A stretch of 64,000 nucleotides of DNA from Escherichia coli (GTDB lineage: Bacteria > Pseudomonadota > Gammaproteobacteria > Enterobacterales > Enterobacteriaceae), in NCBI RefSeq assembly GCF_003334355.1, contig NZ_QOWP01000004.1, one strand, 5' to 3'. Shown in pieces: positions 4,239 to 10,388 of this stretch (positions are counted from its first letter, which is position 1; every line of letters begins with the position of its first letter). A program made the position numbers and the translations under genes. Under the pieces are notes generated by a model. The model was given only the letters and a program-made list of their open reading frames with translations. It was not told the DNA's origin and did not search any database.

Positions 4239-5162
4239 TCAGGCATGCTCCAGTGAAAAATTCGGGTAGTGCTCGGCAAAATACTGGCGTAAAAATTCTA
4301 CCGTTATCCGCACTTTCGCTGACGTCGCCAGCCTTGAAACATAAACGGCCCAGACGTTCGCTGGCTGGTAATATTCCGGTAGCACTTGCACTAAATGACC
4401 ACTGGCAATGTTTTCGCTAACATCCCACCAGGAACGCAGAGCAATCCCCTGCCCATCGAGACACCACTGATGGACAATTTCTCCATGATTAGACGACAGT
4501 GGGCCGGTGACTTTAATCGCATGGGGGCCTTCTTTATTGCGTAATTGCCAGACACCAAAAGGATGATCGCGCTCTTTAATGACCAGGCACGGCAATGCAG
4601 AAAGATCGGTTAAATGTTTCGGCGCGCCATGTTGCGCAATAAATTCCGGCGACGCGCAGAGAATACGGTAATTGGTCGCCAGTTTGCGGGCGATTAAATT
4701 AGGGGCGATGTCATCGCCAATGCGAATATCGAGATCGACACCTTCATTGACCAAATCGACCAGTCGGTCTTCCACATCAAAACGTAATTCCAGTTGCGGA
4801 TACGCCTTCGCCAGCGCTGATAACGCCGGAGCCACCACCTGTCGTCCAAAACCAAAGCTGCTGATAATACGCAGCATCCCCTGCGGCACCTGACGCACGT
4901 CAGAAAGTTCGTCCATCATCTGACCGACATCCTGCAAAATCCGCTGCGCCCATTCATAAATCCGCTCTCCTTCTTCGGTAATGGTGACGCGGCGGGTGGT
5001 GCGGTGTAACAACACCACGTTTAGCGTTTGCTCCAGCAAGGCGATGCGCTTGCTGACGAACGCCGGTGAAACGCCCAGTTCTTCCGCCACGGCGGCAAAA
5101 CCAGCCCGGCGAGCCACCAGCATAAAGACGCGCAAATCATTCAGCAGCGGTAAATTATTCAT
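4239..5162 (-). CDS. dmlR: LysR-family transcriptional regulator DmlR (YeaT)
   Basis: N-terminal HTH (LRVFMLVARRAGFAAVAEELGVSPAFVSKRI); ATG at 5160-5162 gives 307 aa; divergent from dmlA. Confidence 0.9.
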   Translation of the reverse strand: MNNLPLLNDLRVFMLVARRAGFAAVAEELGVSPAFVSKRIALLEQTLNVVLLHRTTRRVTITEEGERIYEWAQRILQDVGQMMDELSDVRQVPQGMLRIISSFGFGRQVVAPALSALAKAYPQLELRFDVEDRLVDLVNEGVDLDIRIGDDIAPNLIARKLATNYRILCASPEFIAQHGAPKHLTDLSALPCLVIKERDHPFGVWQLRNKEGPHAIKVTGPLSSNHGEIVHQWCLDGQGIALRSWWDVSENIASGHLVQVLPEYYQPANVWAVYVSRLATSAKVRITVEFLRQYFAEHYPNFSLEHA

Positions 5163-5264
5163 GATTCGTGTTTTATGTTTCACCAGTTACGGGGATTAAT
5201 TCCTTTTCAGTCAATTATAGGATGGTGATGTTGTCAATTTTGATGGTCAGGAAGTGAGAACCCA

Positions 5265-6350
5265 ATGATGAAAACGATGCGTATTGCTGCGATCCCGGGA
5301 GACGGGATTGGCAAAGAAGTCCTTCCTGAAGGGATTCGCGTGTTACAGGCTGCCGCTGAGCGCTGGGGCTTCGCCTTGAGTTTTGAGCAAATGGAGTGGG
5401 CGAGCTGCGAGTATTACAGCCATCACGGTAAAATGATGCCGGACGACTGGCATGAGCAACTTAGCCGTTTCGACGCCATCTATTTTGGTGCCGTCGGCTG
5501 GCCGGATACCGTTCCGGACCATATTTCGTTGTGGGGTTCGCTGCTGAAATTTCGTCGTGAATTCGACCAGTACGTCAACCTGCGCCCGGTTCGTCTCTTT
5601 CCTGGCGTTCCCTGCCCGCTGGCGGGAAAACAGCCTGGCGACATCGATTTTTACGTGGTCAGGGAAAACACCGAAGGCGAATATTCCTCGCTCGGCGGTA
5701 GAGTGAATGAAGGTACAGAGCATGAAGTCGTCATTCAGGAATCGGTATTTACGCGTCGTGGTGTCGATCGCATTTTGCGTTATGCCTTCGAACTTGCGCA
5801 AAGCCGCCCACGTAAGACGCTAACTTCTGCCACTAAATCGAACGGTTTAGCCATCAGCATGCCGTACTGGGATGAGCGAGTGGAAGCAATGGCCGAGAAT
5901 TACCCGGAGATCCGCTGGGACAAGCAGCATATTGATATTCTCTGCGCGCGTTTTGTGATGCAACCGGAACGCTTCGATGTGGTGGTGGCGTCCAATTTGT
6001 TTGGCGATATCCTTTCCGATCTTGGCCCGGCCTGCACCGGCACCATTGGCATTGCCCCATCCGCCAACCTGAATCCGGAACGCACTTTCCCGTCGCTCTT
6101 CGAGCCTGTCCACGGTTCCGCGCCGGATATCTACGGGAAAAATATTGCTAACCCTATCGCCACGATTTGGGCCGGGGCAATGATGCTCGATTTTCTCGGC
6201 AATGGCGATGAGCGTTTCCAGCAAGCGCATAACGGTATTCTGGCAGCAATTGAAGAAGTGATTGCTCACGGGCCGAAAACACCTGATATGAAAGGCAATG
6301 CCACCACGCCACAGGTTGCCGACGCGATTTGCAAAATTATTTTGCGTTAA
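5265..6350 (+). CDS. dmlA: D-malate dehydrogenase (decarboxylating), isocitrate/isopropylmalate dehydrogenase family
   Basis: 361-aa ORF with IDH/IMDH family motifs (NLFGDILSDL); recognised as DmlA (YeaU). Confidence 0.92.
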   Translation: MMKTMRIAAIPGDGIGKEVLPEGIRVLQAAAERWGFALSFEQMEWASCEYYSHHGKMMPDDWHEQLSRFDAIYFGAVGWPDTVPDHISLWGSLLKFRREFDQYVNLRPVRLFPGVPCPLAGKQPGDIDFYVVRENTEGEYSSLGGRVNEGTEHEVVIQESVFTRRGVDRILRYAFELAQSRPRKTLTSATKSNGLAISMPYWDERVEAMAENYPEIRWDKQHIDILCARFVMQPERFDVVVASNLFGDILSDLGPACTGTIGIAPSANLNPERTFPSLFEPVHGSAPDIYGKNIANPIATIWAGAMMLDFLGNGDERFQQAHNGILAAIEEVIAHGPKTPDMKGNATTPQVADAICKIILR

Positions 6351-6370
6351 GGTCAAACCAGTTTATTTGA

Positions 6371-6397
6371 ACCGCGTCACTGACGCGGTTTTTTTAT
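6371..6397 (+). terminator. Rho-independent terminator after dmlA
   Basis: accgcgtca-c-tgacgcggt hairpin followed by a T7 run. Confidence 0.7.
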
Positions 6398-8211: not shown

Positions 8212-8242
8212 GCGCCATCATCCTAACGATAAAGGTATCCCT

Positions 8243-9367
8243 ATGAGCAATCTGAGCCCTGACTTTGTACTACCCGAAAATTTTTGCGCTAACCCGCAAG
8301 AGGCGTGGACCATTCCTGCCCGTTTTTATACCGATCAGAACGCGTTTGAACACGAAAAAGAGAACGTCTTCGCCAAAAGCTGGATTTGCGTCGCTCACAG
8401 CAGCGAACTGGCGAATGCCAATGATTATGTGACGCGTGAGATCATTGGCGAAAGCATCGTGCTGGTACGCGGTCGTGATAAGGTTTTGCGCGCGTTCTAT
8501 AACGTGTGTCCGCACCGTGGTCATCAGTTGTTGAGCGGTGAAGGAAAAGCAAAAAATGTGATTACCTGCCCGTATCACGCATGGGCATTCAAACTCGATG
8601 GCAACCTGGCCCATGCACGTAACTGCGAAAACGTCGCCAATTTCGATAGCGACAAAGCGCAACTGGTTCCGGTGCGTCTGGAAGAATATGCCGGATTCGT
8701 CTTCATCAACATGGACCCCAACGCCACCAGCGTAGAAGATCAATTACCCGGCCTGGGCGCGAAAGTGCTGGAAGCCTGCCCGGAAGTCCACGATCTGAAA
8801 CTGGCGGCCCGCTTTACCACCCGCACGCCTGCCAACTGGAAGAACATTGTCGATAACTATCTCGAGTGCTATCACTGTGGTCCGGCGCATCCAGGTTTCT
8901 CCGACTCTGTTCAGGTTGATCGTTACTGGCACACCATGCACGGTAACTGGACGCTGCAATACGGTTTCGCCAAACCGTCCGAACAGTCTTTCAAATTCGA
9001 AGAGGGCACGGATGCGGCATTCCACGGTTTCTGGCTGTGGCCGTGCACGATGCTGAACGTCACCCCGATCAAAGGGATGATGACGGTCATTTATGAATTC
9101 CCGGTGGATTCTGAAACTACCCTGCAAAACTACGATATTTACTTCACCAATAAAGAGTTAACCGACGAGCAAAAATCGCTTATTGAGTGGTATCGCGATG
9201 TGTTCCGTCCGGAAGATTTACGTCTGGTTGAAAGCGTACAGAAAGGGCTGAAATCGCGTGGCTATCGTGGTCAGGGGCGCATCATGGCCGACAGTAGCGG
9301 TAGTGGCATTTCCGAACATGGTATCGCCCATTTCCATAATCTGCTGGCGCAGGTGTTTAAGAACTAA
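8243..9367 (+). CDS. yeaW: Carnitine monooxygenase, Rieske oxygenase subunit (CntA-like) YeaW
   Basis: 374 aa from ATG 8243 (MSNLSPDF...); Rieske motif CPHRGH...CPYHAW. Confidence 0.92.
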   Translation: MSNLSPDFVLPENFCANPQEAWTIPARFYTDQNAFEHEKENVFAKSWICVAHSSELANANDYVTREIIGESIVLVRGRDKVLRAFYNVCPHRGHQLLSGEGKAKNVITCPYHAWAFKLDGNLAHARNCENVANFDSDKAQLVPVRLEEYAGFVFINMDPNATSVEDQLPGLGAKVLEACPEVHDLKLAARFTTRTPANWKNIVDNYLECYHCGPAHPGFSDSVQVDRYWHTMHGNWTLQYGFAKPSEQSFKFEEGTDAAFHGFWLWPCTMLNVTPIKGMMTVIYEFPVDSETTLQNYDIYFTNKELTDEQKSLIEWYRDVFRPEDLRLVESVQKGLKSRGYRGQGRIMADSSGSGISEHGIAHFHNLLAQVFKN

Positions 9368-9422
9368 TGACATCGGCGGCGGTATTTTCCGCCGCTGGGC
9401 TGATTTTTGATGGAGTACAGCA

Positions 9423-10388
9423 ATGTCAGACTATCAAATGTTTGAAGTACAGGTGAGCCAGGTGGAACCCCTTACCGAACAGGTGAAACGCTTCACGCTG
9501 GTCGCAACCGATGGCAAACCATTACCTGCGTTTACTGGAGGAAGTCACATCATAGTGCAGATGAGCGATGGTGATAACCAGTACAGCAATGCGTATTCAC
9601 TACTGAGTTCGCCTCTCGATACAACTCATTATCAGATTGCCGTTCGATTGGAAGAAAACTCGCGCGGTGGTTCGCGCTTTTTGCATCAGCAGGTGAAAGC
9701 AGGCGATCGGTTGACCATTTCGACGCCTAATAATCTGTTTGCGCTAATTCCCTCGGCCAGAAAGCATCTGTTTATCGCGGGCGGTATTGGTATCACCCCT
9801 TTCCTGTCGCACATGGCAGAGCTGCAACACAGCGACGTCGACTGGCAGCTACATTACTGCTCGCGAAATCCAGAAAGTTGCGCATTTCGTGATGAGCTAG
9901 TCCAGCATCCGCAGGCTGAGAAAGTCCATTTGCATCATTCATCAACCGGAACACGACTGGAATTAGCGCGATTATTGGCGGATATCGAACCTGGCACACA
10001 CGTTTATACCTGTGGCCCCGAGGCGCTAAATGAAGCGGTAAGAAGTGAAGCTGCGCGTCTGGACATCGCCGCCGATACGCTGCACTTTGAGCAATTTGCT
10101 ATCGAAGACAAAACCGGCGATGCATTTACCCTGGTGCTTGCCCGTTCCGGAAAAGAGTTTGTGGTGCCGGAAGAGATGACTATTTTGCAGGTTATTGAAA
10201 ATAATAAAGCCGCGAAAGTGGAATGTTTATGTCGTGAAGGGGTATGCGGAACCTGCGAAACGGCAATACTGGAAGGTGAAGCTGACCATCGGGATCAGTA
10301 TTTTAGCGATGAAGAGCGTGCCAGCCAGCAAAGTATGTTGATCTGTTGTTCGCGTGCGAAGGGTAAACGCCTGGTGTTGGATTTGTAG
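9423..10388 (+). CDS. yeaX: Carnitine monooxygenase, reductase subunit (CntB-like) YeaX
   Basis: 321 aa; C-terminal plant-type 2Fe-2S ferredoxin cysteine cluster (CREGVCGTCE) plus flavin/NAD-binding region. Confidence 0.92.
   Translation: MSDYQMFEVQVSQVEPLTEQVKRFTLVATDGKPLPAFTGGSHIIVQMSDGDNQYSNAYSLLSSPLDTTHYQIAVRLEENSRGGSRFLHQQVKAGDRLTISTPNNLFALIPSARKHLFIAGGIGITPFLSHMAELQHSDVDWQLHYCSRNPESCAFRDELVQHPQAEKVHLHHSSTGTRLELARLLADIEPGTHVYTCGPEALNEAVRSEAARLDIAADTLHFEQFAIEDKTGDAFTLVLARSGKEFVVPEEMTILQVIENNKAAKVECLCREGVCGTCETAILEGEADHRDQYFSDEERASQQSMLICCSRAKGKRLVLDL

Follow-up and report, generated by a model that had tools for sequence, protein, structure and literature searches.

What does it mean that the genes for cleaving carnitine and those for using D-malate stand side by side in Escherichia coli? 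In the 64-kb stretch of E. coli DNA analysed here (the window, to which all coordinates refer), dmlR, dmlA, yeaV, yeaW and yeaX occupy positions 4239–10388, and the original prediction took the five for one carnitine carbon-salvage pathway at which the C4 product of carnitine cleavage is oxidised to malate and fed to DmlA. Our analysis favours a narrower answer: the five genes are probably one pathway by descent, which in E. coli is incomplete and decaying.

Gene calls were based on open reading frames (ORFs) and on the RefSeq annotation of E. coli PSS-12, which is 100% identical to the window over 3000–11500, a span containing the cluster, and carries the same names for all five genes. The cluster is flanked by leuE and rnd, and its features are as follows (lengths in amino acids, aa).

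4239–5162, minus strand: dmlR (yeaT), LysR-type regulator, 307 aa, called from the ORF and RefSeq
5163–5264, no strand: divergent control region between dmlR and dmlA, 102 bp, from cross-genus alignment
5265–6350, plus strand: dmlA (yeaU), decarboxylating D-malate dehydrogenase, 361 aa
6369–6398, plus strand: predicted intrinsic terminator 3′ of dmlA, with a 10-bp stem at 6369–6391 and a T-run to about 6398
6449–6507, plus strand: conserved non-coding block 5′ of yeaV, with putative operator or promoter content
6505–6729, plus strand: segment absent from K-12, B and about 26% of E. coli, from alignment with BW25113
6601–8211, plus strand: yeaV, full-length BCCT-family transporter, 536 aa
8243–9367, plus strand: yeaW (cntA), Rieske oxygenase subunit of carnitine monooxygenase, 374 aa
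9373–9398, plus strand: hairpin between yeaW and yeaX, from folding, in a spacer homologous to the msadh–yeaX spacer of Citrobacter
9423–10388, plus strand: yeaX (cntB), reductase subunit with a plant-type [2Fe-2S] motif, 321 aa

The genes, motifs and terminator that had been noticed from the sequence are confirmed. All five genes are intact, dmlR on the minus strand and the other four on the plus strand; CPHRGH and CPYHAW can be read in the translation of yeaW (…NVCPHRGH…ITCPYHAW…) and the cysteine cluster CREGVCGTCE in that of yeaX, and a strong hairpin followed by a T-run separates dmlA from yeaV (folding z = −5.2). Since these are ordinary annotated E. coli genes, their chance occurrence is not in question. 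A longer dmlR ORF with a GTG start extends to 5183.

Conservation of the cluster

One genome per GTDB species was scanned with a CntA/YeaW alignment, yielding 315 relatives, of which the closest 80 were analysed with 10-kb flanks. These loci were searched with the five E. coli proteins together with the malic semialdehyde dehydrogenase (MSA-DH) and Hyd of Acinetobacter. Seventy-three loci had an adequate flank, defined as at least 4.5 kb upstream of cntA, and dmlA, whole or split, was found within 10 kb of cntA in every one of them. The canonical order dmlR↔dmlA–yeaV–[hyd]–yeaW–[msadh]–yeaX is present in 68 of the 73; four others (Stutzerimonas, Burkholderia/Paraburkholderia) are rearranged with dmlA still within 10 kb, one Citrobacter locus has dmlA in two pieces, and none (0/73) is without dmlA. 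The surveyed taxa include Escherichia, Citrobacter, Yersinia, Serratia, Xenorhabdus, Pseudomonas, Acinetobacter, Neisseriales and Burkholderiales, covering at least five orders, and the dmlR–dmlA spacer measures 94–105 bp in almost all taxa sampled. Thus, co-conservation of dmlRA with yeaVWX, which had been put forward as a check on the proposed link, came out strongly positive, and such linkage, mostly in the canonical order, strongly supports descent from one ancestral unit. Of the 80 loci, only those of Acinetobacter and two of Neisseriales carry hyd; the gene is absent from the window, where 31 bp separate yeaV from yeaW.

Two genomes deserve mention on their own. Citrobacter braakii ATCC 51113 carries two cntA loci in one genome (L014 and L016); YeaW of the locus without msadh is 92% identical to that of E. 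coli and YeaW of the locus with msadh 88%, which suggests duplication or horizontal acquisition. In Aeromonas cavernicola (L096, 1–8183) a complete six-gene cluster adjoins a fragment of an IS66-family transposase, a neighbourhood hinting that the unit as a whole was transferred horizontally.

The carnitine to D-malate route

The locus is probably the Escherichia version of a conserved proteobacterial cluster for carnitine catabolism, dmlR/carR↔dmlA/mdh–bcct–[hyd]–cntA–[msadh]–cntB. Where the cluster is complete, the BCCT transporter brings in L-carnitine, CntA and CntB hydroxylate its C4 and release trimethylamine (TMA) and (R)-malic semialdehyde, MSA-DH turns the aldehyde into D-malate, and a DmlA-type enzyme oxidatively decarboxylates D-malate to pyruvate and CO2. 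All of these steps have been demonstrated for Acinetobacter baumannii (Piskol 2024, PMC11353897), whose cluster reads carR–mdh–bcct(aci01347)–hyd–cntA–msadh–cntB (Zhu 2014; Breisch 2019, 2022; Piskol 2024). A D-malate route was proposed earlier (Djahanschiri 2022, PMC9162365), and conversion of L-carnitine to TMA and malic semialdehyde, then to D-malate and finally to pyruvate and CO2, was demonstrated in vitro with the purified enzymes of A. baumannii, and the route was also reconstituted in E. coli (Piskol 2024, PMC11353897). The product of MSA-DH is specifically D-malate, on which the decarboxylating malate dehydrogenase (MDH) then acts (PMC11353897), and an A. baumannii mutant deleted for mdh no longer grows on carnitine (Breisch 2022, as summarised in a paper citing it). 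Because the chiral carbon of L-carnitine is left untouched, its cleavage product leads to D-malate, the substrate of DmlA; the stereochemistry, on which the proposed link could have failed, is therefore the right one, as proven for the A. baumannii orthologues (PMC11353897).

The link between carnitine and D-malate is already published, including an explicit comparison with these very genes. Section 3.13 of Piskol 2024 (PMC11353897) sets the A. baumannii cluster against exactly these five E. coli genes, states that hyd and msadh are missing in E. coli and names GabD (62% identical) as a possible substitute; moreover, BL21, B and K-12 showed no growth on carnitine, a BL21 extract had no detectable monooxygenase activity and no cntA expression was found in public data. 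Our literature searches pairing DmlR with yeaV, or yeaW with dmlA, retrieved nothing.

Compared with the A. baumannii cluster, the window has the five orthologues in the same order and orientation, the divergent LysR regulator with a spacer of about 100 bp, the Rieske and Fe-site motifs and the D-malate-specific decarboxylating dehydrogenase. Unlike it, the window has neither msadh nor the putative acylcarnitine hydrolase gene hyd; dmlA and yeaV are 250 bp apart with a strong terminator between them, whereas mdh and bcct of Acinetobacter are about 20–60 bp apart in one operon; the E. coli laboratory strains tested do not grow on carnitine (PMC11353897); and many E. coli carry a variant of the cluster or have lost it.

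Using an A. nosocomialis locus, we independently obtained identities to the Acinetobacter orthologues of 45% for DmlR, 71% for DmlA, 54% for YeaV, 73% for YeaW and 52% for YeaX, the published values for the same pairs being 45, 72, 56, 72 and 52% (Piskol 2024, PMC11353897). DmlR is the orthologue of A. baumannii CarR, DmlA that of MDH and YeaV that of Aci01347. YeaV matches NCBIfam NF007412 end to end (1–536 of 536). YeaW contains the domains PF00355 and PF00848, scores 655 bits against the solved A. baumannii CntA structure (PDB 6Y8J), and its Fe-site residues E208, H211, H216 and D325 are invariant across 16 homologues. DmlA passes the TIGR02089 cut-off (565 vs 470 bits) and is termed a generalist D-malate / tartrate / 3-isopropylmalate dehydrogenase in a passage of Piskol 2024 (PMC11353897). 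Its best solved structure is PDB 3FLK (650 bits, full length), the Pseudomonas putida tartrate dehydrogenase/decarboxylase, an enzyme of the same TIGR02089 family that differs from DmlA in having been characterised on tartrate and D-malate. Pseudomonas cnt clusters carry a DmlA orthologue 76–80% identical to that of E. coli; since 3FLK is also the structure closest to DmlA, the textbook P. putida tartrate dehydrogenase may be the D-malate dehydrogenase of a carnitine pathway.

Loss of msadh and its possible replacement

The gene that links the two halves of the route is the one missing here. Of 79 loci, 54 have msadh between cntA and cntB and 25 do not, the latter including those of all four Escherichia species. 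No aldehyde dehydrogenase gene was found across the 64-kb window, and only a 55-bp spacer lies between yeaW and yeaX. Since msadh is absent from both cluster and window, the five E. coli genes do not make up a complete pathway.

The spacer keeps a trace of the missing gene. It is homologous to the spacer between msadh and yeaX in Citrobacter and holds the hairpin at 9373–9398 (−19.5 kcal/mol, z = −3.3), followed by GGGCTGATTTTT..GGAGT..GCAATG. Citrobacter strains without msadh still hold its stop codon and the downstream hairpin, Pseudomonas strains without it keep the hairpin of their msadh-bearing relatives, and a neighbour-joining tree of YeaW and YeaX requires at least eight changes of msadh state. 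We infer that msadh was lost repeatedly, and nearly ORF-exact, from an ancestral six-gene cluster; in Escherichia, the retained downstream hairpin argues for such a near-exact deletion.

A six-gene form, dmlR–dmlA–yeaV–yeaW–msadh–yeaX, is found in Citrobacter sp. R56, C. youngae, K. pneumoniae and Aeromonas cavernicola (L006, L009, L093 and L096, respectively). Its proteins are 78–94% identical to those of the window, and it shares with the window the spacers, the terminator that follows dmlA and the hairpin preceding yeaX. Where the window has only its 55-bp spacer, the six-gene form carries an aldehyde dehydrogenase of 482–483 aa that is 61–64% identical to Acinetobacter MSA-DH and has Asn184.

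Could another enzyme of E. coli take over this step? GabD is 62–68% identical to the cluster MSA-DHs, which makes it a plausible surrogate as judged from its sequence. Yet every cluster MSA-DH has Asn184, a dual-cofactor residue, where GabD has Ser, and because of this replacement GabD is not simply interchangeable with them.

Transcription units and a candidate operator

The terminator downstream of dmlA (−15.1 kcal/mol; none of 200 shuffles folds as well) has a hairpin that is invariant in Escherichia and Citrobacter. The dmlA–yeaV spacer measures 190–600 bp in Enterobacterales and Pseudomonas, and in Escherichia and Citrobacter it holds this terminator along with further conserved blocks. 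The predicted terminator would make dmlA of Enterobacteriaceae a transcription unit of its own, unlike the single operon of Acinetobacter.

Nonetheless, a regulatory connection between the two units may exist. The dmlR–dmlA control region contains conserved GTCAATT repeats, and a candidate operator near dmlR (5165–5183, TTCGTGTTTTATGTTTCAC) has a copy upstream of yeaV (6449–6468, TTCGTGTTTTATGGCTTTCC) within 6449–6507, the best-conserved part of the dmlA–yeaV spacer. In Xenorhabdus the corresponding sequences are CGTAAATTATGTTTCTAC near dmlR and TAAATTATGTATCAAC upstream of yeaV, the two copies thus changing together between Escherichia/Citrobacter and Xenorhabdus. In E. coli the pair matches exactly at 13 of 13 positions, a score reached by none of 100 shuffles; in other genomes shuffle p-values range from 0.03 to 0.9. 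For most Enterobacterales loci, gapped local alignment settles on this dmlR-proximal site, with many individual p-values being poor, and ungapped 16-mer matches between the two spacers are no better than those of shuffles. In the alignment upstream of yeaV, the GTCAATT repeats present at the dmlA promoter are not conserved. A shared DmlR operator at both spacers is therefore a lead rather than a finding. That the dmlR-proximal sequence is conserved simply because it is coding, as part of the longer GTG-initiated ORF, was considered and rejected as a general explanation, the Xenorhabdus equivalent having an in-frame stop. A weak promoter-like pair, TTGTTT (6479–6484) and AATAAT (6502–6507) with 17 nt between them, was seen by eye and is not listed by the promoter scan.

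The dmlR–dmlA pair as a separate module

In E. coli, DmlR is said to drive D-malate-inducible expression of dmlA, as described by Lukas et al. in 2010. Studies of this D-malate module, by the same group and by Vorobieva et al. in 2014, concern the same gene pair as in the window and reportedly handle it without reference to carnitine. The module is also found without yeaVWX in other taxa. We inspected the neighbourhoods of ten DmlA homologues with 77–88% identity: dmlR–dmlA stands alone, without yeaVWX, in K. michiganensis, Raoultella, S. fonticola and Pseudoduganella, and in C. amalonaticus the pair sits at the same chromosomal site as in E. coli with yeaVWX missing (leuE–dmlR–dmlA–rnd). An MSA-DH-like aldehyde dehydrogenase (55–60% identical) adjoins DmlA, with no cnt genes, in P. 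frederiksbergensis and Pragia. Shimwellia has DmlA together with the cnt genes in the five-gene form without msadh, while K. pneumoniae (with a frameshifted yeaV) and Aeromonas cavernicola have the six-gene form. The association thus appears to be one-sided, carnitine oxygenase genes being virtually always accompanied by dmlRA and dmlRA behaving as an autonomous D-malate module.

The pairs of MSA-DH-like enzyme and DmlA form an observation of their own. That of P. frederiksbergensis (L095, 5519–8080) is located downstream of genes for an ABC transporter, an oxidase (DAO / Pyr_redox_2 / Fer2_4) and an M20 peptidase, and that of Pragia fontium lies at 7001–9663 of L097. In these bacteria another substrate may be funnelled via a semialdehyde and D-malate.

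How, then, does the claim of a single pathway stand? It is partly supported. Conserved synteny, chemistry and stereochemistry speak for it, and oxidation of the C4 product to malate for DmlA is proven in A. baumannii; against it, the oxidising enzyme is not encoded in the E. coli cluster. The unity of the five genes was overstated, for dmlRA can be separated from the rest, has its own terminator and is of use by itself. On the descent reading that we prefer, msadh would have been removed from Escherichia almost exactly as an ORF and the terminator would isolate transcription of dmlA, leaving YeaWX still able to make TMA and DmlR/DmlA working as a stand-alone D-malate module; any carnitine carbon that may reach DmlA would need an unlinked aldehyde dehydrogenase.

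Decay across E. coli strains

Population counts were made over 5426 complete E. coli genomes, of which 4367 contain at least 80% of the cluster and 2931 the segment 6512–6728, which lies inside the K-12 deletion; by difference of these counts, about 1436 genomes (26%) have the cluster with a K-12-type deletion of 225 bp. Only remnants, of the type seen in the uropathogenic E. coli (UPEC) strain NU14, are left in about 1057 (19%). In total, an intact cluster is missing, through damage or loss, from about 46% of the genomes.

The K-12-type deletion corresponds to window 6505–6729, with 1-nt microhomology at the junction in the alignment with BW25113. It removes 96 bp upstream of yeaV, the ribosome-binding site, the start codon and the first 43 codons. 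It is present in K-12 (BW25113, MC1061 and C600), the same shortened span being found in the B-lineage strain C3029, and RefSeq annotates yeaV of K-12 as a pseudogene missing its N-terminus. The allele of the window is ancestral, since the long form of yeaV is also that of Citrobacter and of the other species of Escherichia, and the NF007412 model is 536 positions long.

NU14-type genomes keep only window 4039–4406, 5613–5785, 6339–6375 and 10365 onward, having lost 4407–5612, 5786–6338 and 6376–10364 (NU14 locus L082, 6001–6416). This pattern of remnants between leuE and rnd implies three separate deletions, which together took parts of dmlR and dmlA and all of yeaVWX. In addition, some E. 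coli records contain an in-frame dmlA′–′yeaW fusion protein of 472 aa (P0014, NCBI TPA record), made of DmlA 5–177 and YeaW 75–374, which arose by deletion of the 3′ half of dmlA, yeaV and the 5′ end of yeaW. Frequent loss and truncation across E. coli fits weak selection on the cluster.

These alleles also bear on the physiology reported so far. K-12 and the B-lineage strain C3029 were checked here, and the published lack of growth on carnitine probably came only from strains with a damaged transporter gene; the truncation of yeaV is not mentioned in Piskol 2024 (PMC11353897). On the other hand, K-12, BL21, DH10B and SE11 are listed as confirmed degraders of carnitine to TMA (Jameson 2018, PMC6200775), and for this reason YeaWX appears to be active even in laboratory strains.

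Alternative explanations

Several points weigh against descent followed by decay as the full account. More than half of the E. coli genomes keep all five genes intact at 95–100% identity, which is not what fully neutral decay predicts. The negative growth test says little about strains with an intact yeaV, as K-12 and a B-lineage strain carry the 5′ deletion of this gene. GabD keeps Arg166, Arg284, Ser447, Cys290 and Glu256, and it is as similar to the cluster MSA-DHs as these are to one another across orders (61–71%); flux to D-malate could therefore still occur. The synteny survey covered the closest 80 of 315 cntA relatives, and those further away may have other gene contexts, an Achromobacter type without mdh and msadh being mentioned in Piskol 2024 (PMC11353897).

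One alternative is the original prediction, a working salvage pathway in E. coli. In it, YeaV and YeaWX would be followed by GabD, Sad or another housekeeping dehydrogenase yielding D-malate, which would induce dmlA through DmlR and be converted to pyruvate. GabD has all substrate-binding and catalytic residues and was already a candidate (Piskol 2024, PMC11353897); the five-gene form without msadh arose repeatedly and has persisted (Escherichia, Shimwellia, Serratia, Yersinia, Xenorhabdus and some Pseudomonas), always with dmlA; the dmlR-proximal sequence 5165–5183 recurs upstream of yeaV; and the negative growth tests used lineages with a damaged yeaV. Even so, we regard this pathway as unlikely, though the best placed of the alternatives. 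Carnitine supports no growth of K-12, B or BL21, BL21 extract shows no detectable monooxygenase activity and public data no cntA expression (PMC11353897); Asn184 of all cluster MSA-DHs is Ser in GabD; the shared-motif evidence is individually weak (shuffle p 0.00 to 0.9); a strong conserved terminator stands between dmlA and yeaV; and almost half of the genomes have no intact cluster. A shade less likely still is the combined version, that E. coli with an intact yeaV runs a working conversion of carnitine or gamma-butyrobetaine to TMA with the C4 unit salvaged via GabD/Sad, possibly under a shared DmlR operator, the published lack of growth being an artefact of K-12 and B.

A second alternative changes the substrate. 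In lineages without msadh, the oxygenase would act mainly on gamma-butyrobetaine, the end product of the anaerobic cai pathway of E. coli, and the same hydroxylation at C4 would give TMA and succinic semialdehyde, the native substrate of GabD and Sad; msadh and dmlA would not be needed, and dmlRA would be kept only as an independent D-malate module. YeaW/X is said to have been described as a gamma-butyrobetaine-utilising enzyme by Koeth et al. in 2014. YeaW is sometimes described in this way (Jameson 2018, PMC6200775), gamma-butyrobetaine, like carnitine, is both bound and oxidised by CntA (Quareshy 2020, PMC7948474), E. coli has GabD, and dmlRA is autonomous in several taxa. Against this, succinic semialdehyde is a product presumed by analogy, YeaW shares 73% identity with the carnitine-active CntA, from which it is indistinguishable in its functional domain and to which it is homologous by substrate-specificity tests (PMC6200775), and the linkage of dmlA to every sampled cluster without msadh would be left unexplained. 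We hold a main role on gamma-butyrobetaine to be quite improbable.

Finally, that two modules never functionally linked are adjacent by chance, for which one could cite the terminator and 250-bp spacer between them and the occurrence of dmlRA alone in other bacteria, is effectively refuted by the synteny survey (dmlA linked to cntA in all 73 loci, at least five orders) together with the single mdh–bcct operon of Acinetobacter and, as reported by a paper citing Breisch 2022, the carnitine growth defect of its mdh mutant, and we give it hardly any credence.

Significance

Carnitine-derived TMA from gut Enterobacteriaceae has been linked to cardiovascular risk, and the capacity to form it is estimated from cntA/yeaW gene counts. 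Whether the reaction supplies E. coli with carbon bears on the selection and gut expression of these genes. As the pathway link is known, the decay polymorphisms and the caveat on laboratory strains are the only additions made here: the apparent repeated, near-exact loss of the msadh ORF, a damaged or missing cluster in almost half of sequenced E. coli, and K-12 and B being unrepresentative since they have no yeaV start. All three points bear on metagenomic surveys of cntA and on the choice of strains for tests.

Other observations around the cluster

A scan of window 4000–10700 against Rfam (E ≤ 0.1) matched no family. Outside the cluster, dgcP is seemingly split at about 940–2093 of the window (ORFs 940–1644 and 1686–2093); it is a frameshifted pseudogene in the PSS-12 annotation and intact in NU14. 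Several close E. coli relatives have an insertion of about 1.35 kb near the cluster with an IS4-like, IS421-family transposase, which falls outside 4239–10388, within window 3000–4238 or 10389–11500.

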